Shown here: positions 421 through 37,085 of the stretch, in pieces
Layout: the number at the start of each line of letters is the position of its first letter
How positions within the stretch are numbered: position 1 is the stretch's first letter
Program-made: the position numbers and the translations under genes
The notes under the pieces: generated by a model
Told to the model about the DNA's origin: nothing
Seen by the model: the letters and a program-made list of their open reading frames with translations, nothing else
Databases searched by the model: none
Virus record (IMG/VR): IMGVR_UViG_3300038393_001148
From: a virus
Taxonomy: Duplodnaviria; Heunggongvirae; Uroviricota; Caudoviricetes
Direction: 5' to 3' (one strand)
DNA: 37,085 nucleotides

Positions 421-732
421 ATGCTCACCGAGACCTGGAAGCTCCATAGCCACATCGGAAGCACCTGCACAGTGAGCCGCAATATCGATGGCCGCGAGAC
501 GGTCTGGACCCTCCGCAAGGGGGAGAAGGGCTGGCGCGTCTATCAGATCAAATTCTCCAAGCTCAACATGGGGTGCAACTTCCACTTGGAGCGGACCAAG
601 ACCTACGACGGCCAGTGCCAGCACTTCGAGGGCGGCTGCTGGGATGAACAGCGCCACGCGCACGGTATTCGCCTGACGGACTCCCGCATCGACCGCACTC
701 TCCGAGATTACGCAGAGGGGCGTCGTGTCTAG
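421..732 (+). CDS. Hypothetical protein
   Basis: ORF with GC-biased codons; start reassigned to the ATG after the promoter. Confidence 0.75.
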   Translation: MLTETWKLHSHIGSTCTVSRNIDGRETVWTLRKGEKGWRVYQIKFSKLNMGCNFHLERTKTYDGQCQHFEGGCWDEQRHAHGIRLTDSRIDRTLRDYAEGRRV

Positions 733-1093
733 TCACAACAACGCTTATCTTCCTCCGGGAACATGGTTTTACGATCCCGAGTCTGAAGTTATTCTTGAGG
801 TGCTTTCCTCAAGGGGTATGTACGTCGCCGGGCTGTACTACTATACCGTTCGGGTGATCAGGGGTGGCACATGGTCACTTGATGTCAGGCAGCCGTCGAT
901 CTCCCCGAGGAGGTTTGTAGACGGCGAGTCTCAGCTTATTCGTGAGGCACACCTTAGACTGTATTTTACTCGCTGCTCGCATGTCCCTATCGGGTTTTGC
1001 CCCGAGTGCGAGGACGACGATTCGATTTTCTACGGCGAGGACTACATCTGCGCGTTCTGCCGAGATAGGCTCGATGACCCATGGCCCGAGTAA
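725..1093 (+). CDS. Zn-finger-tagged small protein
   Basis: C-terminal CPECEDDDSIFYGEDYICAFCR. Confidence 0.8.
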   Translation: MSSHNNAYLPPGTWFYDPESEVILEVLSSRGMYVAGLYYYTVRVIRGGTWSLDVRQPSISPRRFVDGESQLIREAHLRLYFTRCSHVPIGFCPECEDDDSIFYGEDYICAFCRDRLDDPWPE

Positions 1094-1407
1094 CCAAGTT
1101 ATACAAGTACGAGGTGGGAGACCACGTTCGTCTCAGGGCGGTGGCGCTAGGAACGGAGACTGAATGGTCCGCCTATAACGAAGCCGTTGAGGGCGTTACA
1201 CCTGGGACGGAAGGCCGCATTTTTGAGATGGCGGACACCTATCCTAATTCGGGATCGGTGATCGTTGTTCGATGGAGCCATGGCGGCACGAGTTCGCTAA
1301 ATGAGGTCTGGGTAGAGAAGGTCACTAGGCCATGTGGAAGTTGCGAAGCGGATTGCCTACATGATGATTATCTTTGCGGGAGGTGTCGAGATGCCATTGG
1401 ATCATAA
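1081..1407 (+). CDS. Zn-finger-tagged small protein with SH3/KOW-like N-terminus
   Basis: YEVGDHVRL...GTEGRI...VVRW; C-terminal CGSCEADCLHDDYLCGRCR. Confidence 0.8.
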   Translation: MARVTKLYKYEVGDHVRLRAVALGTETEWSAYNEAVEGVTPGTEGRIFEMADTYPNSGSVIVVRWSHGGTSSLNEVWVEKVTRPCGSCEADCLHDDYLCGRCRDAIGS

Positions 1408-1678
1408 ACGCATCTATCTTATTAGTAGTGGTGACGCTCTTGGCCTCGTCTGGAAAATGAAGGGAGACCCCGGTGGAGTATGGCGTCTCTGGTGGGATAC
1501 GTGGGGAACATACAAAATGGATGGAGAAGGGGTCAGCGAGCGAAATGTCATGATCTATGCCCCTACGACCAATGTGAGCCACCTCCCGGTGATGTCTCGT
1601 TGTGCCGAATGCGAAAGAGCGCTTGTCGTAACGGACTATCTGTGCAAGGGGTGCCGAGATGCATTGCGCCCAATGTGA
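1391..1678 (+). CDS. Zn-finger-tagged small protein with Trp-rich N-terminus
   Basis: GGAGG SD before ATG 1391; C-terminal CAECERALVVTDYLCKGCR. Confidence 0.8.
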   Translation: MPLDHKRIYLISSGDALGLVWKMKGDPGGVWRLWWDTWGTYKMDGEGVSERNVMIYAPTTNVSHLPVMSRCAECERALVVTDYLCKGCRDALRPM

Positions 1679-1701
1679 TACTGATTCGAGATATATAAGC
1701 C

Positions 1702-1730
1702 TTGACAAGTCTTCCATAAGCTGGTAAGGT
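1702..1730 (+). promoter_or_regulatory. Sigma70-type leaderless promoter
   Basis: TTGACA-17-(TGG)TAAGGT-7-ATG. Confidence 0.85.
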
Positions 1731-1737
1731 TCCACCC

Positions 1738-2598
1738 ATGAGCAAGTTCACCGCCGAGCAGAAGAAGGAGTACGCCGCCGCGAAGCAGGAAGAGCAGCGC
1801 ACCATGCTGGCTGATGCAGTGCAGCGCCTCTGCACGTCGGAGGGCTGGCTCCGCTACCTGGAGGCCACGGCCAAGTTCCCCGGCCGCTCTTTCAACAACC
1901 GCATGCTGATCGCCTTCCAGGATCCCGAGGCCACGCTGGTCGAGGGCGGCAAGACCTGGCCCAAGAAGTGGGACCGCAAGGTTCAGCCCGAGGGCTACGA
2001 GCACCCGATCATGATCCTCGCCCCGATCATGGGCGACGTGAAGGATAAGGATGGCAACGTCATCAAGGGTCTCGACGGCAAGCCCAAGCAGCGGGTCATC
2101 TTCTACAAGTCGGTCAAGATCTACGACGTGCGCTGGACGGAGGGCAAGCCGATCCCGGCCCGCCCGGAGCCCCAGCCGGTCACCGGCGACTCACACGAGG
2201 AGTACATCCTCCGCGCCTCGCAGTACATCGAGGGCATGGGCGCGAACGTCACCGACACCGCCGTCGAATACTTCACCGAGGACGAGGCCCTGACCTTCCC
2301 AATTTCCGCGAACGCGGTCAATGGTCAGGTTCGCGAACTGGTTCGCGCCGCTGCGCGCATCGGTGCCGTCACCCCGATGGCCGAGGCCGAGCTTTCGCTG
2401 AGCGCCGCTCAGCAGGAGGTCATCATCGAATCCGCCGCCTACATGGTCTGCCAGAACATCGCCCTGGACACCACCGGCATGACCGTCCCCTACATCGCTT
2501 CCTGGGACGAGGACCCCAAGAAGGCCCAGTCCATCATGCGCGACTTCGCGGCCATCATCGATGAGGTCGCGACGGCCGTCACGGAGGCCATCTCGTGA
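1738..2598 (+). CDS. ArdC-like ssDNA-binding/antirestriction protein
   Basis: WLRYL..AKF..SFNNRMLIAFQ.PEATLV.G..TW....RKV, IMILAP and IYDV..TEG match the ArdC N-terminal pattern; C-terminal E..IES.AY.VC...LDT....YIASW. Confidence 0.75.
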   Translation: MSKFTAEQKKEYAAAKQEEQRTMLADAVQRLCTSEGWLRYLEATAKFPGRSFNNRMLIAFQDPEATLVEGGKTWPKKWDRKVQPEGYEHPIMILAPIMGDVKDKDGNVIKGLDGKPKQRVIFYKSVKIYDVRWTEGKPIPARPEPQPVTGDSHEEYILRASQYIEGMGANVTDTAVEYFTEDEALTFPISANAVNGQVRELVRAAARIGAVTPMAEAELSLSAAQQEVIIESAAYMVCQNIALDTTGMTVPYIASWDEDPKKAQSIMRDFAAIIDEVATAVTEAIS

Positions 2599-2726
2599 TA
2601 TTCCTCTGGCTCATTATCTACCTAGTAGAGGGAACTCCGAATATCATCAACAACAACGGCAATGACGCCGCCTGGATTATCACCGGCGTCATCTGCCTAA
2701 TCCTTACCATCCTGGGGAGGGACTAA
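2595..2726 (+). CDS. Small membrane protein (43 aa)
   Basis: VIFLWLIIYLVEG...AAWIITGVICLILTILGRD; GTGA and TAATG overlaps with neighbours. Confidence 0.55.
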   Translation: MIFLWLIIYLVEGTPNIINNNGNDAAWIITGVICLILTILGRD

Positions 2727-3025
2727 TGGGCTGGTTGCGAAATTACGGTGCCATGAACGACGACAAGCTCCTGCGCACGATCAAGGAGTTTCAGAGCGGC
2801 TACGGGACCGCCATCACCCGCGTGCAGGATAAGGGCGGGGATATGGACGAGAACCGCGCCAAGGCCGAGTACGAGGCCCGCAGGCGCGGTCTCATTGACG
2901 ACAACTTTATGCCGCCCGAGGGCACCGAGGTCTTCACCGAGGCGCGTTTCTGCCCGGAGTGCGAAAAGAAGAAGCCCTTCCGCCTGGATGATTACATTTG
3001 CCGATTCTGCCGGGATGCCCAATAA
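2726..3025 (+). CDS. Zn-finger-tagged small protein
   Basis: C-terminal CPECEKKKPFRLDDYICRFCR. Confidence 0.8.
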   Translation: MGWLRNYGAMNDDKLLRTIKEFQSGYGTAITRVQDKGGDMDENRAKAEYEARRRGLIDDNFMPPEGTEVFTEARFCPECEKKKPFRLDDYICRFCRDAQ

Positions 3026-3203: not shown

Positions 3204-3413
3204 TTGCAGCATCGCGATGATCCGCTGCGCTTTGTCGTCCCAGACGGAAAGTATCAGATGACGCGGCTAGTCCTGGCGATTCAAGAGATTTTTAATCGCC
3301 TTGACGCAGAGTACGGGCCTATCCGTATGACCATCACTGCGAGTGATGGTCTGTCGGAGAACCACACTGCCCTAGTTGTATATGAAAGGATTCCTAATGG
3401 CACACATGTATGA
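3204..3413 (+). CDS. Hypothetical protein, paralog of 20300..20557
   Basis: Shared RL..AI....N.LDAEYGP motif. Confidence 0.6.
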   Translation: MQHRDDPLRFVVPDGKYQMTRLVLAIQEIFNRLDAEYGPIRMTITASDGLSENHTALVVYERIPNGTHV

Positions 3414-4050
3414 TAAGGCTCCTCCCGCCTTTGCCAAGGATCCGTGGGCGTGGGATTACACCCGCGACCGCATGGAGCAGAACACCGGGATCCTCTACCC
3501 GGACTGGCAGGGTAAACACTTCGCGGGCGCAGCCGCCATGTACAAGAACGTGGTCAAGAAGTACTCCGGCAACGTTGTTGCAGGAAACCTGACCACTCCA
3601 AAGGAGTGCGTGGACTGCGGAGCCACCAATCCCCACTACGTTGATGACTACGTGTGTAGGGATTGCCGAGATGCCATCGAGAGCGCTGGCTCATACGAGG
3701 AGGCGGCAAGTACCATCACTCGCCCCGACTCCATCGACGCCATCCGCGAGCAGCTTTACAAGGCCCTGGGTCACGACAAGAAGGACGCCAAGGCCGGTCG
3801 TGTGCCGTCCGATTTGAAGGGCGAGGACACGTCGCCCACGGCTGATTCCTATAACGAGGTCACGAACCTGATCACCGGCGTGGCCGGGGTCAGCCGCAAC
3901 TACAAGGCCATGGGTGCCGATAAGCTGGCACGCTGCATCGCGGAGCTTGAGGCTGGCACCGGCAATGCCGTTAAGCGGGCGCAGGCCAAGGGCGAGAGCG
4001 TAGCCGACCACCTGGAGGCTGCCTACCGCGCACAGCAGGAGAAAGCATGA
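3397..4050 (+). CDS. Protein with an internal copy of the Zn-finger tag
   Basis: Internal CVDCGATNPHYVDDYVCRDCR; AAGGA SD. Confidence 0.8.
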   Translation: MAHMYDKAPPAFAKDPWAWDYTRDRMEQNTGILYPDWQGKHFAGAAAMYKNVVKKYSGNVVAGNLTTPKECVDCGATNPHYVDDYVCRDCRDAIESAGSYEEAASTITRPDSIDAIREQLYKALGHDKKDAKAGRVPSDLKGEDTSPTADSYNEVTNLITGVAGVSRNYKAMGADKLARCIAELEAGTGNAVKRAQAKGESVADHLEAAYRAQQEKA

Positions 4051-4391
4051 ACCCCGCTATTTGTTCTAGCTGTGGCGAGACCTATGTTTCGCATTGGGGA
4101 GATCTGGATGGCAACATGTGCCATTCGTGTCAGAAGGACAGGAGGCAAGACTTCGGTAAGTACCACGATAACTATTATCACTTCAAGAAGAAGTCGCAGT
4201 ATCCACCTGTGTGGAAGGAGGCGAGTGCCGAGGCCGCGACGAAGGAGAGGCGGAAGAGTGCGCGGATTGACGCAGCGGTCATGAAGCCATGTTCGGAATG
4301 CGAGCAGGATCGGCCCCATGACCCCGACGACTACATCTGCATTATTTGCCGCGATGGCCGCGAGGCGCTTCCCAAAGGCTACGTGCTTTAA
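4047..4391 (+). CDS. Double Zn-finger protein, tagged
   Basis: N-terminal CSSC..CHSC and C-terminal CSECEQDRPHDPDDYICIICR. Confidence 0.8.
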   Translation: MNPAICSSCGETYVSHWGDLDGNMCHSCQKDRRQDFGKYHDNYYHFKKKSQYPPVWKEASAEAATKERRKSARIDAAVMKPCSECEQDRPHDPDDYICIICRDGREALPKGYVL

Positions 4392-4447: not shown

Positions 4448-4507
4448 ACGTCAAGTTGAGTCCACCGGGCAATCCCGCCCAAGTTTCAAGGAGCTACGCT
4501 ACACCTC

Positions 4508-5650
4508 ATGACGGTTTCCTCCCTTATCCCGAAGGCTGACCAGTACTACGACCTGGAGTACAACGTCCTACTGATCGGCCTGCACGGCGTCGGCAAGACC
4601 GAGGCCATCGTCTCGCTCGCTCGCGAGAAGGGCGCAGTCCTCAAGTACTACTCGTGCTCGACGCTGGACCCGTTCACCGATCTCGTCGGCGTCCCGACGC
4701 CGCGATACTACGACACGGTGAACCGGATCTACTTCAACACGCCGACGCACCCGACGACGGGCAAGCACATCAGCGAGGACCCCACCGTCGTGGAGACCCT
4801 ACGCATGGTCCGCCCGCGCGACGTGGATGAGGCCGAGTTCATCTTCTTCGATGAGTTCAACCGAGGCGACGAGAAGACGCAGAACGCCATCTTCGAGATC
4901 ATCCAGTTCGGGACGATCAACGGCGAGAAGCTGCCGAACCTCAAGTGCTGCTGGGCGGCCATGAACCCGCCCGATGGCGACTACAAGGTCTCCGATCTCG
5001 ACCCGGCGCTCATCGACCGCTTCGACACGTTCATCGACATCCAGGCCAAGCCGTCCGTGGCCTACATGTCGGGGCCGGGCGGGCTGCCGAAGCCCATCGC
5101 CCAGGCGCTCTACTCCTGGTGGGGCGAGCACAACACGCAGCGCCGGGGCATGGAGAATTTCATCTCCCCGCGCCGCCTCATGAAGATCGGTCGCGTCTTC
5201 CATGAGACGGGCGACTTCCGCCCGGCGCTCCCGAAGTGGATCAACGCCGACCGCTCCAAGCTCGCCGCGCTGCTGGACCGGGCCAAGGAGGACGTGGCGA
5301 AGAACCCGCCGAAGACGGGCAAGCTGGGCGACGGGCCGAACCCCTCGTTCCAGTACGACGAGACGTGGCTCGCCGAGAAGCGGATGACCGTGGCGAAGTA
5401 CATGGAGAACAACCCGGAGGACTTCGACACGCACAACGCGGTCCTCTCCGTGATCGAGAGCAAGCAGGGCCGGACCCTGGCTCGCGACTACGCGGAACTG
5501 CTGGAGGCGCTGAAGCCCGCGCTGCTGGAGGGCTTCATCAGCCGCCTCAACGCGGGCAAGCTCAACAGCCTCACCGAGGCCGTCAAGGAGCTTCCGTCCC
5601 ACCGGTACGACACGCTCACCAACCTGCGCCGCGAGTTGTCGCTGGCGTAG
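4508..5650 (+). CDS. MoxR-like AAA+ ATPase
   Basis: Walker A GLHGVGKT, Walker B IFFDEFNR, sensor AAMNP, arginine finger LDPALIDRF. Confidence 0.9.
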   Translation: MTVSSLIPKADQYYDLEYNVLLIGLHGVGKTEAIVSLAREKGAVLKYYSCSTLDPFTDLVGVPTPRYYDTVNRIYFNTPTHPTTGKHISEDPTVVETLRMVRPRDVDEAEFIFFDEFNRGDEKTQNAIFEIIQFGTINGEKLPNLKCCWAAMNPPDGDYKVSDLDPALIDRFDTFIDIQAKPSVAYMSGPGGLPKPIAQALYSWWGEHNTQRRGMENFISPRRLMKIGRVFHETGDFRPALPKWINADRSKLAALLDRAKEDVAKNPPKTGKLGDGPNPSFQYDETWLAEKRMTVAKYMENNPEDFDTHNAVLSVIESKQGRTLARDYAELLEALKPALLEGFISRLNAGKLNSLTEAVKELPSHRYDTLTNLRRELSLA

Positions 5651-5705: not shown

Positions 5706-6017
5706 ATGAACACGTTCTTTCAAATCTTCTCACCGCTGATCATGTTGGTCTCAGCGGTGTGTTGGCAATTATTCTGCCAGCGCATAAATCTGGAACGGCT
5801 GCGCAACCAAGATGAGTTGATTGCCAAGCTCCGGGATCATAATAAATGCATAAGCCAAGACCTTGCGTGGCTTCTCCAGCAGAACCAAATGCTCCAGGAG
5901 AGGCTAGGTAAATTGGAAGCGACGTGGAAGCATGCCGCACTCTGTGTCGAATGTGACCAGCCTAATCCCATCGATGATGGCGACTACATTTGTAAGGAAT
6001 GCCGATCCGCCAAATGA
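5706..6017 (+). CDS. Zn-finger-tagged protein with N-terminal TM and coiled coil
   Basis: Hydrophobic N-terminus; C-terminal CVECDQPNPIDDGDYICKECR. Confidence 0.75.
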   Translation: MNTFFQIFSPLIMLVSAVCWQLFCQRINLERLRNQDELIAKLRDHNKCISQDLAWLLQQNQMLQERLGKLEATWKHAALCVECDQPNPIDDGDYICKECRSAK

Positions 6018-6022
6018 ATAGC

Positions 6023-6051
6023 TTGACTCCAACCTCTAACCCTGGTACAAT
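6023..6051 (+). promoter_or_regulatory. Sigma70-type leaderless promoter
   Basis: TTGACT-17-(TGG)TACAAT-7-ATG(6059). Confidence 0.8.
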
Positions 6052-6058
6052 CATTCCT

Positions 6059-7561
6059 ATGAGCAAAGCTCCTGACACCGGCCAAGTGCCGAAGGAAGTA
6101 CAGGAGGCAATCGAGCGCGCGCAGAAGGAAGCCCGCGAGCAGATCGCCAACTGTGACCTGAAGCTTCACTACCTGGACGCCATCGATTATCTCGATGAGA
6201 ACTTCGCGTTCTTCCTCACCCACGTCCTGAACATGGGTAAGCCGCAGTGGACCCGCGCCATCAAGACGGCGGCGGTCGCGCTACCTCATGACGGCGCGAG
6301 CATGGACGACTTCATGTACGTCTTCAACGACGTATTCGCCGCGCTGCTGACGCCCGAGGAGTTCGCGTTCATCCAGGCGCACGAGACGATGCACGTCCTG
6401 CTGAACCACCTCAAGCTGCTGGAGAAGGGCAAGAAGCGGGGCAAGTTCAAGGACCCGCAGAAGTTCAACGTGGCGGCTGACTGCGTGATCAACGATTACC
6501 TCGTCAGTATGGGCCTCGACGCGGGGCGTATCCGCGACATGGGCTGCTTCGGCCCCGATATCGTCGGCTACGACTGCTCCAACTCCACCGTCTCCGAGGT
6601 CTATCTCGACATCCCGGACGAGGACTCCGAGAACGGCGACGGCGAGGGCGACGGCCAGGGTGGCGGCGGTCAGATCGACGGTTCCGGCATGGGTTCGCTG
6701 GGCGACTACATGGATGGCTCGTCCAAGTCGCAGATGACCGGCGACCACGACTGGCTCCACAACCCGCAGGACGCCAAGGGCCAGTCGGCTGCGGCCGACC
6801 AGATGGGCCAGTCCTCCAACATGCCTCAGGACTTGGAGGATAAGAAGGCCGACGACGACAACAAGGGCACGCCGGGTGCTGGTCCGGGCTCCGAGGCTGG
6901 CGCTATGCGCAACTTCGTTGAGCAGAAGGGCGTTTCGATGCGGTGGGCCGAGCTTCTGAAGGAGGTCAACCCCGACTACTTCAAGAGCGGTGGCCCGAAG
7001 CCGCGCCCGTCCTTCCACAAGCGCAGCCGCAAGATGGCGGGCGTCTATGAGCGCTACGACATCGGCGTGTTGCCGGTCAAGCGCGACCCGGATAACCCGC
7101 GTGGCATGACGCCGAGCATCGTCATGTTCATGGACGGGTCGGGCTCCTGCTCCGACTGGATCCAGAACTTCGCCACCCTGGCGAAGTCGGTCAACCCCAA
7201 GATGATCCACCTGCGGGCCTGGACGTTCTCCACCTACACCACCCCGTTCGATGTCACGTCGGATAAGAATCAGATGGCGTCGGGCGGCACCTCGTTCTCG
7301 CCCATTGAGGACGAGATCCGGAAGTCGGTGGTCCCCGAGTTGGGGCACTACCCGCACGCGGTGGTCGTCATGACCGACCTGGAGGGCTCGTTCCCCGGCT
7401 CGAAGCCGGACGAGAAGAACAAGGACAAGTGGCTCTGGCTCGCCACCCACCAGGGCCGCTACGACTACCGTGGCGCAGACAAGTTCGGCAAGACCATCAA
7501 CATCGAGGAGTTCTGCGATGGGATGCCTGGCATCCAGAAGGTCGGCAATCGCGGCTGGTAG
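6059..7561 (+). CDS. DUF2201-type putative metallopeptidase plus VWA domain protein (MoxR partner)
   Basis: HETMH (HExxH), FNVAADCVIN, acidic/Gly linker, MIDAS DGSGS, GGTSF, MTDLEG. Confidence 0.85.
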   Translation: MSKAPDTGQVPKEVQEAIERAQKEAREQIANCDLKLHYLDAIDYLDENFAFFLTHVLNMGKPQWTRAIKTAAVALPHDGASMDDFMYVFNDVFAALLTPEEFAFIQAHETMHVLLNHLKLLEKGKKRGKFKDPQKFNVAADCVINDYLVSMGLDAGRIRDMGCFGPDIVGYDCSNSTVSEVYLDIPDEDSENGDGEGDGQGGGGQIDGSGMGSLGDYMDGSSKSQMTGDHDWLHNPQDAKGQSAAADQMGQSSNMPQDLEDKKADDDNKGTPGAGPGSEAGAMRNFVEQKGVSMRWAELLKEVNPDYFKSGGPKPRPSFHKRSRKMAGVYERYDIGVLPVKRDPDNPRGMTPSIVMFMDGSGSCSDWIQNFATLAKSVNPKMIHLRAWTFSTYTTPFDVTSDKNQMASGGTSFSPIEDEIRKSVVPELGHYPHAVVVMTDLEGSFPGSKPDEKNKDKWLWLATHQGRYDYRGADKFGKTINIEEFCDGMPGIQKVGNRGW

Positions 7562-8977: not shown

Positions 8978-8978
8978 T

Positions 8979-9682: not shown

Positions 9683-10060
9683 TTGACCGCAGAAGTGAAG
9701 GATCCTGAGGGTCGAGTCGAGTCGATCCTTGATGAGGCCCGCGAGGCGCTAGAAGCGCAGCTTGAGGAGCTTCGTCCCGCGCATGAGGCGTTTGTGCGCC
9801 TGGAGCGCATCGTCAGTAATTACGACGCTGTGACTTCGGACCAGCCGATCACCGGCCGTAGCGGAGACCGCGCAAGCCGTGGTAGCCGTCCGCAGCAGTT
9901 CCTCGCGATTGTCGCCGAGGCTGGCGACGAGGGCGTGACGGTATCTGAGGCCCTGCCGAAGATGGAGGGCATCAACAACAACTACCTCTACCGCATTGCC
10001 GCCGATGCCGTCAAGGAGGGCATCGTCCGCAAGGAGGGCAAGCGCTACTTCACGGCCTAG
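9683..10060 (+). CDS. Coiled-coil plus winged-helix DNA-binding protein
   Basis: AGGAGG SD; C-terminal GVTVSE...GINNNYLYRI...EGIVRKEG wHTH pattern. Confidence 0.7.
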   Translation: MTAEVKDPEGRVESILDEAREALEAQLEELRPAHEAFVRLERIVSNYDAVTSDQPITGRSGDRASRGSRPQQFLAIVAEAGDEGVTVSEALPKMEGINNNYLYRIAADAVKEGIVRKEGKRYFTA

Positions 10061-11108: not shown

Positions 11109-11266
11109 CCGAGATGGATGACGTAGAGAATGGCGTAGAAGATGCGTACATTCTCTACGTCCTCTCCACTTCCAGTGAGGGCCTCACCCAGGAGCAGATT
11201 GCCGAGCGAATTAAGAGCCTCTCTGCGGAAGAGAGGCTGAAGGCGCTGGCCGACTATGACTCATGA
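11105..11266 (+). CDS. Small hypothetical protein (53 aa)
   Basis: MTEMDDVENG...GLTQEQIAERI; ATGA overlap; translated by hand. Confidence 0.55.
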   Translation: MTEMDDVENGVEDAYILYVLSTSSEGLTQEQIAERIKSLSAEERLKALADYDS

Positions 11267-23652: not shown

Positions 23653-23654
23653 AG

Positions 23655-24835: not shown

Positions 24836-24842
24836 AGTTGAC

Positions 24843-26024: not shown

Positions 26025-26355
26025 GTACCGAAAGCATCGGGAGTCCGGGATCCTCATCAAGCCCGGCCAGGTATGGCGCGTTACGTTCACGGGCATACTC
26101 ACCTCATTGCGACCCGATTGGGAGGATTGGCAAGTAACTCATCTTGAGCGGGGCACGCCCACCGCAGTCTGCATTTCTTCTCACGACGGACACCGCGAGC
26201 ACCCGATTGGGAAATCTCAGGAGGTATCCATAGGTGATGCAGGCGTATCTCGCTTCTGGAGTATCATCGGGCATCCCTGCGCTGAGTGCGGAGATATCAT
26301 CAGTGGGATCGATGACTACCTCTGTTCGGATTGTCGCTTGACAAACCCAACTTAG
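26011..26355 (+). CDS. Zn-finger-tagged small protein (PGQVW N-terminus)
   Basis: CAECGDIISGIDDYLCSDCR. Confidence 0.8.
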   Translation: MPRIKYRKHRESGILIKPGQVWRVTFTGILTSLRPDWEDWQVTHLERGTPTAVCISSHDGHREHPIGKSQEVSIGDAGVSRFWSIIGHPCAECGDIISGIDDYLCSDCRLTNPT

Positions 26356-27724: not shown

Positions 27725-30319
27725 ATGGATGTCACGTCAGCCTTTGTCGGTATCACAGTTCCACTCAGCGATCTCTACCAAGAGATCGCTGTTCGTGGTT
27801 GGGAGGTCTCCAAGCTCGACACCAAGGAGGGCCAGTATGTGGCGGAAGCTAAAAATCCGCACGGGGAAACGGTCTCGAAGGTCGGGCGGGATCCTCAGAC
27901 GGCGCTCGCGGCCGTTCTCCAGACGATTGTGCGGCGGGAGTTTATTCGCCAGGGCGCGTGGACGCAGCACTGGGCCGATCAGCTTGAGCCCATCGCTCAG
28001 GCGTACGCTAAGGCCCCTGTATTCGATTCTAAGGCTGCCGGAGCATGGCAGGAGCTAGCGGCCGACTGCATCGCCCGAGCGGAGGCTCTAGGGCAGCAGC
28101 TAAAGATCGAGGTGGTGGACGAGCCCGAGCCCTACCACTCGCCGCGTGACATGTGGGAGGACGTGGAGAAGAAAAAGCGCCTCAAGGTCACGCGCGCCGA
28201 TTCCGATCACCCGCTGTGGAACGAGCAGCAGGTCTTGGCCTACCGCATCGTTCATGATGTCCTTGGTCACGCAGCGGCAGGAGGGGACTTTGGCTGGACA
28301 GGAGAGAATCTCGCCACGGCCGCGCATATGCCGTATCTGTCTCCCAGCGCCCAGGCCGCTCTATTCTCTGAATCAATCGGGAACGCTGCGTACAGGCACT
28401 ACTACAAGGGCCTGGGTCCGAAGAAGATCACGTTCCTGAACGAGTTCCTTAATCCCGCTCAGACGGAGAATAACCCCGCTGGGCATGGCGGGCTTCCGAT
28501 TGAGCATTCCTTGGCTCCTGGAGCCCTGCCAGCGGGTCGTACGGCCAATAGTCGAGTAGCAATCGACTGGGGCAGCTACTACAACGAGGTGGACCAGCAG
28601 CCGGTGAGTATCGATCCTTGGACGCCGGGGACAGCGGGCAAGGCATTTATGGACCGGGCCACAGGTCGGGTGCATCACTGGAGGACCGACGCCCCGCATG
28701 ACAAGCCCAGCGTGGGCGTGCCGCATCACACCTGGGTGGCTCAGGAGTTGGGCATCGAGTATCCTTTTGCAGCAAGCGCATGGATTGGTCCAGATGGCTC
28801 AGTGGAGTTCCCGTATCTGGACAGCGAGCCGTCTACGCCTGAGCAGATGCAGGCCGTGAGGGATGAGATCGCTAGGGCTTCGCGCTCGTCGCTGAATACC
28901 TTAGCCCCCACTTCATACAGGAAGGGTATTCGGCAGGCGCTTGTTAATCATCTCGGGTTGGAAGCTCCGCAGGGTGACGTACTAGATGATGATGAGCTTT
29001 GGAAGGAAGCTCGTCGCAAGGTAGCTGCGCTCACCGATCCCAACGCGGGATACGACACGGGGATCATCCCGCCTGCCGTTAACGCGGTATCAGCCTATGG
29101 TGATCCTCTTGACCACATGGGCCTCAAAGATGTAGCACATAAGTTGGACACCGGCTGGTCGCAATGGGAGACGCCGGAAGGAGAACCTGACCGCGAGCGC
29201 ATGAAGCAAGCTATTGTGAATGCCTTCCGTGTGGCCCTGCTGAGCCCGCGTAAGGCGTTGCGCTGGAATGCTGTGCAGTATCAGGATTTGATGCACGTTC
29301 CTTACCATACGACCGACCCCAAGGTCTACTGGGATGCATTGGAGCAGGCGCGCATCAATCACAATCGCGCAGCCGGTGTACCGAACCCAGAGATCGCCCA
29401 TAAGGCCCACTATGAGGCTCTGCTGGACTTCTATCGCTACTATCAGAAGCTCCACCCTGATATGAGCCCCAGCGAGGCTAAGGAGCACGCAGACCGAGAG
29501 GTTCAGGTCATGCAGGCCGAGGTCGAGGAACGCCTATGGAAGGAGTCTCCCGAGCCCGAGATGGACATCTTTGAGCCACGAGTGTTTAAGGAGTTGGACA
29601 AGCGTCTCAAGGCCATCGTCAAGGACGACAAGTCAAGGGCATTATATTCTGCATCGGTGGATCCTAACCCGTATGTGGCCCCGGATCGCTATGGCGGATT
29701 CTTTGCTCGTCCGCTCATCTCCATTGCCAAGGTCTCCCAGAACGCAGATATATTACTTGACGCTGCGCTCAAGGATGTACATGAACATGATGGAGCCGGG
29801 CATCATTTCCGTCAGGTTGCGCTAGCCCTCGGCATCCCATTCCTGGGCCCAAAGGTCGTCAGCTTCGCGTGGCTGTTATTGCAGCCTATGACAAGCCAGC
29901 TTGCTACTATTGACACTCACATGGCGGACTGGCTAGGCTACAAACACAGCCAGGAAGGCATACCACTACGCGATTACTTCCGCTACGAGCGTGAGCTACA
30001 GGCTGGGCGAGACGCTGCCGGTTATTCACACGTCCCGCTCGGCCAGTTCCAGTGGGGCACATGGGATATTAAACGCAATGGTGAGGGAATGCATCAGGAC
30101 CACTCTCCGCTGCGCGTATGGCAGCCACAAGCCCATCATACGGTGGACTGGAATGCTCATGGCGAAGGCTATGGACAAAAAGGCGAGGACTTCGAGCCAC
30201 CGGAATGGTGGAAGATCACCGAGCCATACCGTCAGAACGAAGTGGCTAAGTGGAACATCGATGTGGCTCCATACTTCCCTAAGGGTCAAGTACCATATCT
30301 AGAGGATGTCAATGTCTGA
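27725..30319 (+). CDS. Large modular (polyvalent-like) protein: HDxxGH domain, WTPG-HH domain and C-terminal HhH glycosylase-like domain
   Basis: RIVHDVLGH; WTPGTAGKA...PHH; DDDELWKEA linker; LGPKVVSF...LATIDTHM. Confidence 0.75.
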   Translation: MDVTSAFVGITVPLSDLYQEIAVRGWEVSKLDTKEGQYVAEAKNPHGETVSKVGRDPQTALAAVLQTIVRREFIRQGAWTQHWADQLEPIAQAYAKAPVFDSKAAGAWQELAADCIARAEALGQQLKIEVVDEPEPYHSPRDMWEDVEKKKRLKVTRADSDHPLWNEQQVLAYRIVHDVLGHAAAGGDFGWTGENLATAAHMPYLSPSAQAALFSESIGNAAYRHYYKGLGPKKITFLNEFLNPAQTENNPAGHGGLPIEHSLAPGALPAGRTANSRVAIDWGSYYNEVDQQPVSIDPWTPGTAGKAFMDRATGRVHHWRTDAPHDKPSVGVPHHTWVAQELGIEYPFAASAWIGPDGSVEFPYLDSEPSTPEQMQAVRDEIARASRSSLNTLAPTSYRKGIRQALVNHLGLEAPQGDVLDDDELWKEARRKVAALTDPNAGYDTGIIPPAVNAVSAYGDPLDHMGLKDVAHKLDTGWSQWETPEGEPDRERMKQAIVNAFRVALLSPRKALRWNAVQYQDLMHVPYHTTDPKVYWDALEQARINHNRAAGVPNPEIAHKAHYEALLDFYRYYQKLHPDMSPSEAKEHADREVQVMQAEVEERLWKESPEPEMDIFEPRVFKELDKRLKAIVKDDKSRALYSASVDPNPYVAPDRYGGFFARPLISIAKVSQNADILLDAALKDVHEHDGAGHHFRQVALALGIPFLGPKVVSFAWLLLQPMTSQLATIDTHMADWLGYKHSQEGIPLRDYFRYERELQAGRDAAGYSHVPLGQFQWGTWDIKRNGEGMHQDHSPLRVWQPQAHHTVDWNAHGEGYGQKGEDFEPPEWWKITEPYRQNEVAKWNIDVAPYFPKGQVPYLEDVNV

Positions 30320-33300
30320 TTATCAAGTCCACGAGATCCCCGAAGATAAGATCGATCTCGACACTCGCGCGCTGGAGAATTTCAAGAGTGGGATTAGCAG
30401 TGGATGGGATGACTGGATTAGCAATCGCAGAGTGTTTTTGTATCACCCTCAGACTAAGACGACTTATTTAGCCCCCCTTGGTACTCATCATGGCTGGGTA
30501 GAGAAGTATGTGGCGAGCCTCGGCAACATCAATGAGATGTATGAAGGGATGATCCATACCAATCAGAACTTTGACGAGGGGCACGGGCCGATCCATTGGT
30601 GGTACCGACCAAAAGATCAAGAGGCTGTTGAAAACCACCTATATCAGCAGGGCCACGCTGTTGATTGGCGAACCCAGCCTGAAGAGGAGCTAGATATGAA
30701 TGACGACAACTTGTGGAAGGAGGCTTCCGCGTATCAAATTTACGATCATGGGCAGGAGATGTATGCGCCTCCGGCATCGCAATTCGGATCGAACTGGCGT
30801 GAGCAGTGGATCCTGCATCGTAAGCCATTCCTCTATGACCCTGACACCAAGTCCATCCACGTCGGCCCCCAAGGCGTACATCATGGAGCGTTACACGATT
30901 TCCTTGAGTACAATAAGAACATGGGAGTGGGGAACACTCGCGGCTTCCATGAGGGCATGATCCATCTGGCTCCCGAGACCACTCCCGAGTATTATGATGC
31001 TATCGACTGGTGGAATCCTCCTCTTGATCGTTCTCAAGTAGAACAACAACTCATCCAAGAGGGACATGCTGTGCCATGGGAACGGCAAAATGATGCTGTT
31101 GACATGAATGATGAGGATCTATGGCACGATGCAAGCGCTCGAACGGCTAACGCCTTCGAAGGGATCGCGCCCACCGTCAGCGAACATGACTCACGTATGA
31201 AACGCCTCCATGATTGGAGCACAAGGCCATGGATCTACGACCACGATACGAATGTTATTCATGTCGGTCCCTTGGGCTCATTTCATACAGACATGATCGG
31301 TGTACCTGCCGTGAACAATTGGTTGGGTAACAACCAATATACCGGAGGCCGCATTCAGGGTCCAGAAGTCAGCGCCCGTGATATTCGTGACGAGCATGGC
31401 AACTTCAAGCCGGATGTATACAACAAATGGCAACCCGAGCATATTTTTCCCTATAGGGGATATGATCGTTATTGGAATCATGTGGCTCCTGCACTCGCAG
31501 CATATTTCCCTACGGCGTCCGATCAGGAGCAAGACGACGACGACGATCTTTGGAATTATTCTTCTTCTCACACTTCGGCGTCACGAGATGAAGTACATCT
31601 GTCTCTTGATGTACCAGAACGCATTCGTAAGCGCATCGCCCTCTGGGTTAAACAGCTTGAGCTTCCCGAAGAGGAGTACCTAGACCCGAGTGAGTACCAC
31701 ATTACCATGGCCTACGCAGAGCATGGCCTACATGATGATGTTGTGCGCCGTGCAGCGGATCGCTTCAACTACACCGGATTGAAGTTCGAGGGCAAGCGCC
31801 TGACCAAATTCAACGACGCCGTGGTCATCGAGCTACGCTGCGAGCACTTCAACGAGTACGCGGACGAGCTAAATACGTGGCTGGAAGAGCAGGGCGTCAC
31901 AGTAGCCCGCTACGAGGGCGGCTTTAAGCCCCATATCACGGTCGCCTACAGCGAATCCAGCCCTAGGGCAGCCCTGCCGCCTCTGAGCTTCAGAGCGGGC
32001 CGCATGAACTTCTCCACGCCTCGTCCGCTGCGCGAGGCTGCCGCACGCTATCCGTTCAGCCTCTCCGTGTCCCCGCCAGATCACTGGGTCGGTCAGGATT
32101 ACAATAAGGATGGTGCCTCTCATGAGTGGCGCGATCACGAATACACTCAGCGTATGCCGTTGGCCTACGACAAGGATCGCAATGAAATGTACATTGGACG
32201 GCCAGGACAGTATCACATGCACTTGAGTGAAGAGTATGGCCTCCCACCGCTAGAGGGTCAATGGGAGTCTCAGAAATACAATCCCAAGAGCATGCATGTT
32301 GGGTATATCCATCTTCCTAAGCCCAATGAGATCGGGGAGCCGTATGACTACAAAGATGGGAAGCTAGGTTGGTATGGAACGCCGCCAGAAAATAACGACG
32401 AGCTACTAAATCATCTTGGCATTCAGCCCATGGAAGACCTATCACAAGATGAAAGTCTATGGAAGGAGGCCGGAGGCTGGGATCGGCTTGGGTGGACTCC
32501 CGGCTCTCCAGGCAAGGCCATGTACATTGCTAGGCCGTTCTCTCCTCCAAGGACAGTAACTTGGAATGTAGATGCCAATAGCAGCATGGCGGGACCGCAT
32601 CACGCAGCCATGGCAAGGCAATTAGGAATGTCTGATGAGGACTTCCACGGCGATCTAAGGCGCGGTCATATCTCCTTGATGCGTATCGAACCCAATGGCA
32701 ATATCTACGATACGTATACTGGCGCTAAGGTCCCAGAGCCAGTTCTTAAAGCACATCCCGAGTTAAGCGTTGGGGGACCTGACTACGCTGATGATGAGAT
32801 GTGGAAGGAGGCTAACGAGCCGCCGAGTGAGTTACCGACTATCCGCGAAGAACAGTCAAGTTATAAAAATGGTCCACATGATAATCATACTAGGCCGTGG
32901 ATCTATGATCACACCAAAAATATCATCCATGTTGGTCCGCTAGGATCGCATCACGTAGATATGATGAACGTGCCTGCGACGAAGTATTGGCTCGGCGGAC
33001 AGTTTACGGGCGGGCGCATTGCAGGCAACCCGGTCCCAGATGTATTCACCAATGATCTGAAAGATCCTGAGCAGCTTGCCCGTGTTACTCAACAATGGAC
33101 GCCCCAGAGTGTCTACTCTTATCCGGGAGGGAGTTTCGCACGTTATGATCAACATGTAGATAAAGTTATGCCAGCGTTTGAGCGCTGGCTTCCGGGTGTT
33201 AAGCGACTGTCACCGACTTGGGCCGACGATAGTGGGTGGGATGATTATGATGATTACGATGACTTGGACGTGTTTCGCACGCCGCCACGCACGTCAGAGA

Positions 33301-33518
33301 ATCGCTGGCCCGGCGCTCCCAACGACCCGCTCATGCTCAAGCAAGTCCAGGATCCCAAGCCATCCTGGGAATGGATGAAGCATGAACATGATCTTGATGA
33401 GCACAATCGCTGCCGCACATGCGGAGAGCAGCTAGAGCTATCTGCCATCGGCGATGGCGCAGATAGCCCGCTCGACGCGCCTAGCGATCCTGTGACCGAT
33501 CTACAGCGACCAGTCTAG
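30312..33518 (+). CDS. Large modular protein with repeated His-containing domains and a 2H phosphoesterase
   Basis: Five Y[DH]...G.[HFY]H repeats, one WTPG-HH domain, HITM/HITV pair, acidic LWKEA linkers. Confidence 0.8.
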   Translation: MSDYQVHEIPEDKIDLDTRALENFKSGISSGWDDWISNRRVFLYHPQTKTTYLAPLGTHHGWVEKYVASLGNINEMYEGMIHTNQNFDEGHGPIHWWYRPKDQEAVENHLYQQGHAVDWRTQPEEELDMNDDNLWKEASAYQIYDHGQEMYAPPASQFGSNWREQWILHRKPFLYDPDTKSIHVGPQGVHHGALHDFLEYNKNMGVGNTRGFHEGMIHLAPETTPEYYDAIDWWNPPLDRSQVEQQLIQEGHAVPWERQNDAVDMNDEDLWHDASARTANAFEGIAPTVSEHDSRMKRLHDWSTRPWIYDHDTNVIHVGPLGSFHTDMIGVPAVNNWLGNNQYTGGRIQGPEVSARDIRDEHGNFKPDVYNKWQPEHIFPYRGYDRYWNHVAPALAAYFPTASDQEQDDDDDLWNYSSSHTSASRDEVHLSLDVPERIRKRIALWVKQLELPEEEYLDPSEYHITMAYAEHGLHDDVVRRAADRFNYTGLKFEGKRLTKFNDAVVIELRCEHFNEYADELNTWLEEQGVTVARYEGGFKPHITVAYSESSPRAALPPLSFRAGRMNFSTPRPLREAAARYPFSLSVSPPDHWVGQDYNKDGASHEWRDHEYTQRMPLAYDKDRNEMYIGRPGQYHMHLSEEYGLPPLEGQWESQKYNPKSMHVGYIHLPKPNEIGEPYDYKDGKLGWYGTPPENNDELLNHLGIQPMEDLSQDESLWKEAGGWDRLGWTPGSPGKAMYIARPFSPPRTVTWNVDANSSMAGPHHAAMARQLGMSDEDFHGDLRRGHISLMRIEPNGNIYDTYTGAKVPEPVLKAHPELSVGGPDYADDEMWKEANEPPSELPTIREEQSSYKNGPHDNHTRPWIYDHTKNIIHVGPLGSHHVDMMNVPATKYWLGGQFTGGRIAGNPVPDVFTNDLKDPEQLARVTQQWTPQSVYSYPGGSFARYDQHVDKVMPAFERWLPGVKRLSPTWADDSGWDDYDDYDDLDVFRTPPRTSENRWPGAPNDPLMLKQVQDPKPSWEWMKHEHDLDEHNRCRTCGEQLELSAIGDGADSPLDAPSDPVTDLQRPV

Positions 33519-33797: not shown

Positions 33798-33825
33798 AGT
33801 ATACCCACTTCAGGTCGCTATGCAA
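33798..33825 (-). promoter_or_regulatory. Sigma70-type leaderless promoter
   Basis: TTGCAT-16-TATACT-7-ATG. Confidence 0.65.
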
Positions 33826-34091
33826 CTCCTACAAGCTGGGCAGAGATAGTCGTTCGCGGGGAGGCCTCTCGACCCGCATTCTCCGCATGGCCTTAGGGTC
33901 ATTGCGATCTCCCTATATATCCACGCTATGTAATTGACGCCGCCACTAGCCCCGTGTGCGTCCCACTGAGCAGCGTGGTAGGCACACGTATATTTACTGT
34001 CATGGGGTGGCTTATCACAGATGGGACAGGATTGATTCTCGTTCCACCATCGAAGCATTTGCTCATATGTTAAATTAGCGGGGATTGGCAT
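33810..34091 (-). CDS. Zn-finger-tagged small protein
   Basis: CPIC...CAYH; C-terminal CGECGSRGLPANDYLCPACR. Confidence 0.78.
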   Translation of the reverse strand: MPIPANLTYEQMLRWWNENQSCPICDKPPHDSKYTCAYHAAQWDAHGASGGVNYIAWIYREIAMTLRPCGECGSRGLPANDYLCPACRSCIAT

Positions 34092-34314
34092 GGCGACACC
34101 ACATGCAAATATAATCGTGTTGCTGGTGGAGGCGGTCCTCTCCACACTCCGCACAGTTGCGTGACACAAGGCCACGACCTTCTAGTACTTTCTTAGCCTT
34201 CTCTACCGCGTTGATACCCATGGGGCCAACACCATCAACTTGGTCCTCAAGGAGCTTGACGATCTCCCAGTCCTTGAGGCGGCTCCAGCCGCTTGACTCT
34301 AGTGACTCATCCAT
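34075..34314 (-). CDS. Zn-finger-tagged small protein
   Basis: CAECGEDRLHQQHDYICMWCR. Confidence 0.78.
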   Translation of the reverse strand: MDESLESSGWSRLKDWEIVKLLEDQVDGVGPMGINAVEKAKKVLEGRGLVSRNCAECGEDRLHQQHDYICMWCRHANPR

Positions 34315-34581: not shown

Positions 34582-34591
34582 TAGGCGCGAC

Positions 34592-34903
34592 CTAGGTCGC
34601 CCGACACTCAAGACATAGGTAATCTAGATCAACAACTCTAGGCAAATCACATACCGCACAGAGGCCACGCGGCGGGAGCGGACAGAAGTTGATGGTCTCT
34701 TCTGAGCAGACAGGGGGAGACTCGGGATGCCAACTGCGCACCATCCCATCCTCTTCTATGCCCCACCAGCGGCCGCTCTCGTAGTACACGAGGACAGCAA
34801 CGCCAGTCTCGCTCCGTCCCCCATCGTGTTCCATGTTGGACTGGCCTAGCTCCCACACAGGGACAAAGACCATCTCTTGTACTTGGGGATCATCGAAGTT
34901 CAT
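34592..34903 (-). CDS. Zn-finger-tagged small protein
   Basis: CAVCDLPRVVDLDYLCLECR. Confidence 0.8.
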   Translation of the reverse strand: MNFDDPQVQEMVFVPVWELGQSNMEHDGGRSETGVAVLVYYESGRWWGIEEDGMVRSWHPESPPVCSEETINFCPLPPRGLCAVCDLPRVVDLDYLCLECRAT

Positions 34904-35184
34904 GTTGACCTACAATTCGAGCACAAAAAGTCCTGATATGATGGCCTACTACACTCTGCGCAGTACAGCGTAGGAATTCGCGAGAAGTTGGGTTGCTTCT
35001 GATGCACACCGGGCCACTCATCCCTACACATGTCTAGGAATGGTGTCATACGTTCTTGCGCACGCACGTAACTACGGTTTGTCCATAAAATCCTCCAAGG
35101 GTAGTGGGTGCCGCCAGTAGAAACACCTGGCTCAGGCCACACCAAGCCCTCGCCGTTTGGGATCGAGAAGTAGTAATAGTCCAT
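34900..35184 (-). CDS. Zn-finger-tagged small protein
   Basis: CAECSRPSYQDFLCSNCR. Confidence 0.8.
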   Translation of the reverse strand: MDYYYFSIPNGEGLVWPEPGVSTGGTHYPWRILWTNRSYVRAQERMTPFLDMCRDEWPGVHQKQPNFSRIPTLYCAECSRPSYQDFLCSNCRST

Positions 35185-35597
35185 TACTGTCTGCACCTAC
35201 TACAGAGGTAATCCAGGAACGATGGTTGCTGACACTCAGCGCAAGTAAGCGTCGGCATAGGGCATGTAAGTTGTAGCCGGGTATAGATGGGCGACCGCCA
35301 CGCTTTCGCCCCGCCCGTTCCGTCTGATCGACCCGGAGCCAGCACCGGCCGGGTCGATGTGAACTCTCCGTCCCTCTTATGTACGGCAAGCGCGTACCAG
35401 CGGCCTTCCTCCTTCCATACCATATGGAAGGAGATAGGACTCTCGTAGATATGAACGTCGTCGTTCATTAGCCCTTCATGCGGCTCCCAATCGCAAGGCC
35501 GAACGCAATCCCGCAGAGGAAGATGATCAGGTCGCTGAGGATAAGGAAGGTCACGCTCATGGCGCATTACCATAGCATGTACATTAAGTTGCGTCAA
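35184..35597 (-). CDS. Zn-finger-tagged small protein
   Basis: CAECQQPSFLDYLCSRCR. Confidence 0.8.
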   Translation of the reverse strand: MTQLNVHAMVMRHERDLPYPQRPDHLPLRDCVRPCDWEPHEGLMNDDVHIYESPISFHMVWKEEGRWYALAVHKRDGEFTSTRPVLAPGRSDGTGGAKAWRSPIYTRLQLTCPMPTLTCAECQQPSFLDYLCSRCRQ

Positions 35598-35820
35598 TGT
35601 CTGCGATCCACTCGCTATCAGCTAGTGTAGGGAGGGGGATTAGCAAACTATAGTTGGGTGCTGGGGTCAACTCGTCCCGCGCGGAATTACAGCGTGGACA
35701 CGGCAGATCGTACCAATAGCAAATGCGCCGCATCCCCGTCCTCCGTCTGCCGCAATTGGCGCACTCGGAGCTATAGTTCAGAAAGGCCCTTTCGTTAATT
35801 GGCGGTTTAGAAGCTTCCAT
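35584..35820 (-). CDS. Small Zn-finger protein (degenerate tag)
   Basis: CANC...WYDLPCPRC. Confidence 0.6.
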   Translation of the reverse strand: MEASKPPINERAFLNYSSECANCGRRRTGMRRICYWYDLPCPRCNSARDELTPAPNYSLLIPLPTLADSEWIADIDAT

Positions 35821-35860
35821 GGCAATCACTATATGTAACTATGTCGCCTAGGAAGCTGCC

Positions 35861-36181
35861 TCAAGCTTCCATTTTCCAGGATGGAGACTTCCGACAATAG
35901 GGACAAAGGTAGTCGAGGAACGCTGGCTCATCACATTCGGCGCACACACTCCAGGATAGCGGCGAGCAAGCGCCCATCGGATAGAAGACGGCTCTTACCC
36001 CGACCGGGGAATTGAGGTCAAAGCCCTTATCCCTGGATGGGCAATCCTCAACAAGAAAGACTCGGCAGTCCCCACCACGATTGTGTTGAACCCGATCTAT
36101 GGTGCCGACCACGCCGTGCCATGACTTGTTGGTGGTGGTTGATGTGAAGGCGACGAGATCCCCAGGCTGGTGGTCACACAT
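35861..36181 (-). CDS. Zn-finger-tagged protein with SH3-like N-terminus
   Basis: QPGDLV...GVVGTI; CAECDEPAFLDYLCPYCR. Confidence 0.8.
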   Translation of the reverse strand: MCDHQPGDLVAFTSTTTNKSWHGVVGTIDRVQHNRGGDCRVFLVEDCPSRDKGFDLNSPVGVRAVFYPMGACSPLSWSVCAECDEPAFLDYLCPYCRKSPSWKMEA

Positions 36182-36512
36182 TCCGGCACCTCAGGCAGAG
36201 ATAGTCCAGGCCGTAGACTACACCATCACAATCACCGCAGGGCCGAGTCGTCAGCATCTCGTAGGCCCACAAGAACTCCCAGCGTAGGAGCGGGTCCTTG
36301 ATGTCTTGCCAATTATCGAACACAAAGGCAGGAGCGCTATGCCCCGCGACATTCTCTTCTTCATACCACGTCTCGCCCTCAGGATAAATAAAGATCTCTA
36401 GCGGCGTTTCTTGGTTCGTTCGCCACGAGGCCGGGGCTGCTCGAACGATAAAGGGCCGACCATCCTTCTGGGCGGCATCGACAAGCTCGGGGCTGGAGGG
36501 TTGCCAGTCCAT
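36174..36512 (-). CDS. Zn-finger-tagged small protein
   Basis: CGDCDGVVYGLDYLCLRCR. Confidence 0.8.
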   Translation of the reverse strand: MDWQPSSPELVDAAQKDGRPFIVRAAPASWRTNQETPLEIFIYPEGETWYEEENVAGHSAPAFVFDNWQDIKDPLLRWEFLWAYEMLTTRPCGDCDGVVYGLDYLCLRCRNV

Positions 36513-36513
36513 A

Positions 36514-36780
36514 TCAGGTCCTAGTCCTACATTCGGAACAGAGATAGTCGTTGTAGGAGATCTCACCACAGTCGGAGCATTTCAGCCACGGCAGCTTGGA
36601 ATGCGGACGGGCGAAGGTCCAATTATTGTTGACACGCCTAAAGGAATAGCCGGTATGGAAGTTATACAGTGCCCCGCTCTCCATATGTTTCCATCGGCCT
36701 TCGGCATCGTTCCACCAAATCAGGAAGGGTTCCCCGCCACCGTTACGGGAAGCCACCAGGACATGCTCTCGATGCCTCAT
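36514..36780 (-). CDS. Zn-finger-tagged small protein
   Basis: CSDCGEISYNDYLCSECR. Confidence 0.8.
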   Translation of the reverse strand: MRHREHVLVASRNGGGEPFLIWWNDAEGRWKHMESGALYNFHTGYSFRRVNNNWTFARPHSKLPWLKCSDCGEISYNDYLCSECRTRT

Positions 36781-37049
36781 GTCCTACACCTACGACAGAG
36801 ATAATCGTAATACGCTGGTTCGTCACACTCGGCACAACGGAGATGGGGCACAGGAGAATAATTTGGCCCGACCGAATAGCCTAGCTCCTCGCAGGCTGCA
36901 AGCGTGGTCGCTACGACCTCGCGCTGATGAACCCCATAGCCGGGGCAGAGCGGATCGAAGAGGAGCCGCCATTGTTCGTCCTCCCTCCAGAGCAGCCAGG
37001 CGTTGGTATGCCTAGCATCGCTGCCTGTGGTGACGTAGTAGTAGTTCAT
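36777..37049 (-). CDS. Zn-finger-tagged small protein
   Basis: CAECDEPAYYDYLCRRCR. Confidence 0.8.
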   Translation of the reverse strand: MNYYYVTTGSDARHTNAWLLWREDEQWRLLFDPLCPGYGVHQREVVATTLAACEELGYSVGPNYSPVPHLRCAECDEPAYYDYLCRRCRT

Positions 37050-37085
37050 GGCTTGCACTCCGGGCAGAGGTATTCCGCATCCCAG
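37046..37085 (-). CDS. 3' end of another Zn-finger-tagged gene (truncated by the window)
   Basis: ...WDAEYLCPECKP-stop, ATGA-coupled to the next gene. Confidence 0.7.
   Translation of the reverse strand, partial: WDAEYLCPECKP

Follow-up and report, generated by a model that had tools for sequence, protein, structure and literature searches.

A 37,085-nt stretch of viral DNA (Caudoviricetes; IMG/VR record IMGVR_UViG_3300038393_001148; hereafter the window) encodes 30 complete proteins, mostly small, that share one short segment with four cysteines, usually at the C-terminus. We refer to this segment as the tail and to its individual copies as tags. We conclude that the tail represents a genuine domain family, so far undescribed, whose architecture is striking and whose docking function is putative. 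In agreement with the initial annotation of the window, it is a constant module, under selection as a peptide, on many unrelated bodies (129 clusters across phages), and it can be detached from them. We consider it on balance probable that the tail serves as a portable docking module, recognised by a single partner.

The motif is constrained as a peptide

A six-frame scan of the window with the pattern CxxC-x(4-10)-D[YF][LIV]CxxCR returned 30 strict matches, and the motif was absent from 120 Markov shuffles of the window (order 2 and 5). All 21 plus-strand and nine complete minus-strand open reading frames (ORFs) listed in the initial annotation carry it. The spacer before DY, put there at 3-9 residues, measures 4-10, and the ORFs at 24484 and 35584, previously taken for degenerate copies, hold CxxC...CxxC pairs without D-Y-hydrophobe and were not counted. 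The ORF ending at 37046 (37046-37085, minus) is cut by the window edge; its continuation in locus L205, which belongs to the same phage and lies past the window's right end, bears the EYLC variant that had been described and has K in place of R. L205 also holds variant tags (2334-2591, 4506-4712 and 4963-5301, minus) whose loops are long or whose first pair is CxC, and the spacer can therefore exceed 10 residues. Four further tagged genes continue the minus-strand array beyond the window edge. Once the next 9.7 kb is included, the total for this phage rises to 45 tags in 46.8 kb; as a count for the genome this is a lower bound, covering 46.8 kb, with the 165-kb contig from another assembly, in which the window sequence is also found, examined in part.

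In an alignment of 29 window tags, the four Cys, D and R never vary and Y is present in 28; across 80 tags from many phages, conservation of the non-ligand residues D, Y and R is 90% or more. Codons within the motif vary synonymously, as had been claimed (GAC 18 and GAT 12, TAC 15 and TAT 14, TGC and TGT about 50:50, and all six Arg codons). Since third-position identity between tags is 0.50, which is the chance level, and the number of identical codons between tags (2394) matches expectation (2422), we conclude that the repeat is kept as peptide and not as DNA. Tagged ORFs in low-depth strain contigs have 15 synonymous and nine non-synonymous codon changes, and all four changes inside the tag of ORF 23625 are synonymous; this comparison draws on the 40 of 78 differences that were listed, some of them possibly errors. 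There was no joint at a tag in the strain contigs, which cannot exclude one. The mean tag charge is -1.6, and this acidic tag is thus unlike a DNA-binding finger.

Carrier bodies are diverse and the tail is detachable

Within the window, no pair of bodies is similar at E<=0.05, and 207 bodies from across phages form 129 clusters, the largest with 11 members. The classes comprise SH3/YorP-like barrels, a membrane helix followed by a coiled coil (12748, 19385 and many database matches), short helical domains and a CCCH-type finger. The SH3/YorP-like and Trp-rich hairpin assignments are leads only, from feature searches that scored below 0.9. One SH3-like body family gave a weak profile test (2-3 of 7), and a single-sequence fold of ORF 2726 was unusable (pLDDT 47).

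The claim that the bodies lack mutual similarity holds for pairwise matches; it does not hold for the tandem array, 1391 and 25722, which share an S-P-L-P-like linker and, in part, a Trp-rich hairpin. Leave-one-out profiles of 12 such carriers, chosen by eye and mostly from the minus-strand array, recognised ten of the 12 with the linker and four without it, and tags of neighbouring genes resemble each other beyond random pairs (P<2e-4). Because the array profiles cross-match and neighbouring tags are alike, we conclude that local duplication spread part of the carriers. Homologous N-terminal regions, that is, ordinary paralogue expansion, would therefore describe one tandem array, whose members look like diverged paralogues, but not the many unrelated bodies.

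The tail was kept in 11 of 12 orthologue comparisons and is old, retained over long evolutionary distances. The L230 homologue of ORF 17799, however, ends without it, and a helical segment that we call domain X precedes the tail in ORF 2726 and follows it in ORF 3397, which argues that the tail is modular. A constant module on non-homologous bodies, the trait for which the carriers had been likened to F-box proteins, is thus present, with one array partly paralogous. Codon bias is weak in carriers (GC3 0.60-0.65, versus 0.88-0.95 for the MoxR, VWA and Ku genes of the window), and many small ORFs beside tagged ones have no tail. The window also encodes an ATP-dependent ligase (11779-12747) and Ku (13588-14379), a phage end-joining pair conserved in the related loci L227 and L231; that this pair favours illegitimate joins that move tails between genes is speculation.

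Fold and family membership of the tail

An AlphaFold model from the 80-row tag alignment (pLDDT 88) has strands at 5-8 and 15-18 and a helix at 26-31, which suggests that the tail is a small, independently folding, one-zinc domain resembling a treble clef. Four ligands in two pairs, a treble-clef trait, are present, the four Cys being invariant in the 80 tags. One orthologue has His in place of the last Cys; judged from sequence, this substitution and the orthologues with a CxC first pair would both fit a metal-ligand role. Fold matches of the model are weak (FmdE, E 2.3, Z 2.0-2.1), and no significant match to PDB or viral structures was found by sequence or fold search, an absence that does not show a new fold.

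The best Pfam family matches 33 of the 80 tags weakly, and the best E of any Pfam family is about 4e-5 (6e-4 for DZR_2, PF18912). The best PHROG matches 10 of 80 tags (E 0.001) and the best NCBIfam entry two of 80, and every single-protein zinc-finger match fell below its curated cut-off. Since most tags share no significant match in Pfam, PHROG, NCBIfam or PDB, the motif stands outside the characterised families searched, as originally supposed.

The likeness to the ClpX N-terminal zinc-binding domain (PF06689) drawn in the initial annotation did not survive comparison. Both are C4 fingers in which an aromatic-hydrophobe pair precedes the second CxxC and a helix follows it. However, hhalign of the 80 tags against a Solirubrobacteraceae ClpX domain gave a probability of 12.5%, and PF06689 is not among the 25 Pfam families listed as tag matches. 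The gap between Cys pairs is 18 residues in the ClpX domain and 7-13 in the tail, V and I occupy the positions of the tail's invariant D and R, and most tails end too early for the ClpX dimer helix (mostly <=8 residues after the last Cys). We rejected this candidate on score, loop length, the missing D and R and the lack of room for a dimer helix.

Distribution across phages and chromosomes

The profile of the motif whose construction had been proposed, built from the 80 tags, matches 466 protein clusters at 50% identity, mostly 60-150 residues long and tailed at the C-terminus. Among the best 150 of the 466 clusters, 137 hold the motif, and 104 of these 137 end no more than 8 residues from the last Cys. 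Tags are as dense in other soil contigs: L116 has 9-10 in 9 kb and L208 has 20-25 in 20 kb, depending on the strictness of the pattern. Variants also run through whole genomes, in that all seven L229 tags and both L242 tags have [YF]G after the Arg and both L228 tags are without the Arg, a pattern that fits copies all following a single partner. Each of the six phage VWA homologues sampled, with identities between 81% and 41%, has tags nearby. By contrast, tags were not found in phiRSL1, around a VWA homologue on a chromosome or in four cultured terminase relatives (I3, Skog, Finch and Myrna, which a search for MoxR in cultured phages did not return either).

A search of about 800 Actinomycetota genomes found one clear tag, in a Solirubrobacteraceae genome, which argues that the tail was not copied from a conserved host protein visible to such searches. 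This tag lies in an island in G278 (C1, about 340,500-343,100; L223:15498-18085, minus) made up of a GHKL-type ATPase, the tagged protein and an integrase-like gene. The tag is internal, between segments that look helix-turn-helix-like by eye, and at least 24 contigs carry the tagged protein. The island might exploit the phage partner or sense it.

The window comes from a large phage, encoding as it does MoxR, a metallopeptidase-VWA, an ATP-dependent ligase and Ku. In its syntenic relative G001 (107 kb), tail-sheath and baseplate-like genes are recognisable by eye, and the G001 terminase is nearest, at about 32%, to those of Bxz1-like mycobacteriophages, Skog and Finch. G001 has 7-9 tags, all in small accessory ORFs; its large structural and replication ORFs have none. 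The tail marks a clade of large myovirus-like soil phages. G001 also carries (L190:4899-5757) 37 tRNA genes, one with a TAA-reading anticodon, and a tmRNA.

The host is probably a member of the Solirubrobacterales. An untagged coiled-coil/winged-helix protein (9695-10060, plus), identified as a host marker by homologue search, is shared between this phage clade and the order: homologues occur in 34 of 61 genomes of the order and in two of 201 across the phylum, both from that same order, and because they concentrate there we assign the host accordingly. The named genomes with homologues are Thermoleophilaceae and Solirubrobacteraceae; unpublished genome G446 is among the 34, and the host assignment is independent of it. 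In Solirubrobacterales chromosomes these homologues adjoin malate dehydrogenase, and the product is possibly a nucleoid-associated protein. Two Ferruginibacter metagenome-assembled contigs with tags, of 3-4 kb, are probably mis-binned phage DNA and were not used for host assignment.

A docking model and its alternatives

In the model that we favour, the four Cys would bind one zinc, and D, Y, the hydrophobe and R would form a constant surface. One partner, more likely phage- than host-encoded, would read that surface and so gather dozens of variable small domains, whether soluble, membrane-anchored or helical, at one machine or site. We lean slightly towards a phage-encoded partner, since the searches revealed no host ligand family with the motif and the variants follow phage lineage. 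The most concrete candidate is the phage MoxR-type AAA+ ATPase (4508-5650, plus; Pfam AAA_5 and alignment) with the metallopeptidase-VWA protein (6014-7561, plus; Pfam DUF2201_N; HExxH, with H123, E124, H127, D374, S376 and S378 invariant), although in absolute terms this identification is rather unlikely. We propose it because tags co-occur with the pair and because the VWA adaptors in MoxR systems hold their clients by acidic residues; the tail would then mark clients or adaptors for remodelling or cutting. A predicted complex of tag, VWA, MoxR and zinc is evidence neither way (median 0.33, versus 0.28 with VWA replaced), and no relative turned up when viral contigs were scanned with a MoxR pattern. 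Columns 66-92 of the MoxR alignment are a variable insert after the Walker A region, which is a CxxC...CxxC ribbon in four homologues and a Cys-free loop in the window copy, and is absent in two.

Several observations weigh against the docking model or its candidate partner. The single partner is something we infer from the sequences; D, Y and R may instead be structural, for example as a D-R salt bridge, and the genome-wide variants are also explicable by recent spread of one ancestral tail. The tandem array of about ten carriers appears at least partly paralogous. Shared ancestry confounds the co-occurrence of tags with MoxR/VWA, some MoxR/VWA pairs occur without tags, and L227 and L231 lack the tagged gene that lies between MoxR and VWA in the window. 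A more specific version, a targeting system encoded by the phage in which the tail docks on MoxR/VWA or another single hub and the bodies deliver host proteins such as defence factors to it for remodelling or cutting, is unlikely. If true, it would be a phage counterpart of the F-box adaptor library, with exchangeable and fast-evolving receptors.

We also considered explanations that need no common partner. The tail could be a zinc-dependent stability cap or degron with no dedicated hub, its folded finger shielding the C-terminus from host proteases, or a degradation signal showing on zinc loss or oxidation. Such a device would work with any body, and the strong C-terminal bias of the tail and the small, accessory carriers with weak codon bias are consistent with it. 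However, there are internal and N-terminal copies (3397 and 21785), the internal one being the best conserved, the invariant D-Y-hydrophobe-R is not obviously needed, and many adjoining small ORFs are untailed; we regard this explanation as distinctly improbable. Equally improbable in our estimate is an ordinary lineage-specific expansion of a zinc finger with independent copies, for example as a nucleic-acid-binding or transcription module. The roughly 35 copies in Bacillus phage G (PMC7824862) are a precedent, local duplication and the partly paralogous array point the same way, and the sole chromosomal copy is flanked by two segments that look helix-turn-helix-like by eye. Set against this are the acidic tail, the 129 clusters of bodies that include membrane-anchored coiled coils, helical and SH3-like domains, and the genome-wide variants, which independent functions do not predict.

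Those variants would be compatible with self-recognition, and tails might associate with one another to form mixed oligomers or a membrane-tethered compartment. Some treble clefs do dimerise (the ClpX zinc domain and the HPV E7 C-terminus), and membrane-anchored carriers recur in many phages. This scheme is very unlikely, given that the helix after the last Cys usually has 2-8 residues, short for known dimer interfaces, and that the net negative charge disfavours self-association. Least probable, and likewise very unlikely, is a cis-acting DNA or RNA repeat (a recombination site, promoter element or translational-coupling signal) with the peptide as by-product. Several next genes begin inside or just after tail DNA, and an identical 19-nt run is common to 24225 and 25722, but that run has P of about 0.03, third-position and codon identity between tags are as expected by chance, the four strain changes in one tag are all synonymous and the tag-to-stop distance varies. 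A -35 box lies within 30 nt after five of 45 tags, compared with 0.5 for a uniform null; because promoters follow the ends of genes in any case, this was not counted.

Tagged ORFs and other features of the window

The first plus-strand carriers (tag in brackets) are 725-1093 (998-1063), whose beta-rich body is SH3-like by eye and which has syntenic tagged orthologues in G001 and L231; 1081-1407 (1333-1389), with an SH3/YorP-like body; 1391-1678 (1601-1657), of the Trp-rich hairpin class, starting possibly at 1334; and 2726-3025 (2951-3013), with domain X before the tag. The best-conserved carrier, 3397-4050, has an N-domain, the internal tag (3607-3669) and domain X, and its orthologues are 59-70% identical. 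ORF 4047-4391 (4290-4352) has a second, N-terminal C4 finger, and 5706-6017 (5943-6005), between MoxR and VWA, a hydrophobic N-terminus and a coiled coil. Downstream lie 11256-11546 (11481-11540), with a beta-rich body; 12748-13173 (13102-13161), with an N-terminal membrane helix and coiled coil; 13173-13604 (13485-13547), of the SH3-like body family; and 15375-15563 (15495-15557), with a short helical body. ORF 17799-18095 (18027-18089) is the one whose L230 homologue is untagged (35%, E 5e-10), 19385-20029 (19952-20011) is a membrane protein with a coiled coil, 20550-20885 (20817-20873) is a further carrier and 21785-22003 has its tag (21794-21850) at the N-terminus. The remaining plus-strand carriers are 23479-23652 (23578-23640), a short helix; 23625-23921 (23847-23903), with a CCCH-type body and a start at 23625 or 23655; 23888-24202 (24137-24184), which starts within the preceding tag; 24225-24494 (24432-24485) and 26011-26355 (26278-26337), both SH3-like by eye; and 25722-26024 (25956-26012), of the S-P-L-P linker class.

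On the minus strand, 33810-34091 (33828-33887) starts possibly at 34175 and 34075-34314 (34093-34155) has a short helical body. ORFs 34592-34903 (34601-34660), 34900-35184 (34909-34962, a DF variant), 35184-35573 (35190-35243), 36174-36512 (36183-36239) and 36777-37049 (36783-36836) are tandem array members; 35861-36181 (35891-35944) is SH3-like by eye, and 36514-36780 (36526-36579) is of the Trp-rich hairpin class.

Three untagged ORFs in L205 (2035-2337, 3682-3972 and 4220-4513, minus) share a C-terminal RP[TI]AE-x-[WLF]YE-x-[ML]R motif that was not seen in the other phage loci scanned; two of the three are clear paralogues. The window has ten TTGACA-N16-18-TANNNT sites (1702, 10122, 11543, 13551, 18105, 24807, 25360, 26338, 27030 and 27388), several sharing a TGGTAAGG core. 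An ATG follows 5-8 nt past the -10 box at these promoter-like sites, which points to leaderless transcripts. Two large proteins (27725-33518) have repeated His-containing modules split by acidic D-D-x-[LM]W-K-E-A-like linkers, of which six were found; one of the two holds a 2H-phosphoesterase-like segment, and similar proteins occur in L202, from the same phage, and in L208. ORFs at window 24807-25127 and L202:4835-5107 are, by eye, paralogous basic winged-helix-like genes of this phage.

Significance and comparison with known systems

Much of a large phage genome consists of small hypothetical genes, which are usually examined one at a time; a shared, detachable tail would tie at least 45 of them per genome to one mechanism. 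Annotation gains a new domain family, with 466 clusters (50% identity), from a widespread clade of soil phages. Should the partner prove real, the tail would also provide a transplantable docking tag of 25 residues, with natural lineage variants for specificity swaps.

The statement that no described family has this architecture was borne out in the literature and in Pfam, PHROG and NCBIfam, the closest case being the phage G expansion. A literature search for the module or its architecture found no description within a coverage that leaves out most subscription papers, and one tag searched against 50,697 phage records gave no real match, a weak test for 31 residues. DZR_2 (PF18912), zf-Tbcl_FmdE (PF23475) and Zn_Ribbon_TF (PF08271) share the CxxC...CxxC spacing and probably the fold, with weak matches.

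According to Iyer et al. 2021 (PMC7824862), Bacillus phage G has about 35 copies of one small zinc ribbon, the YP_009015343.1 family, of unknown function and proposed to be transcription factors or structural DNA binders. Dozens of one small C4 zinc module in a large phage are common to both cases; going by that description, the acidic treble-clef-like tail, its many unrelated bodies and its presence across a whole clade would set the present family apart. The same paper proposes that MoxR with a metallopeptidase-VWA acts in virion assembly in T4-like jumbo phages, and a second paper (PMC7911831) places the pair in haloviruses as well. The window encodes such a MoxR and metallopeptidase-VWA pair, and the portions consulted of these papers describe no client tag.

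By analogy, the tail may be compared with F-box/PRANC, SOCS-box and SspB-type adaptor tails. It appears unrelated to these in sequence and fold, with bodies here of 40-150 residues and several folds, and what it would share with them is the logic of a variable domain joined to a constant docking module.

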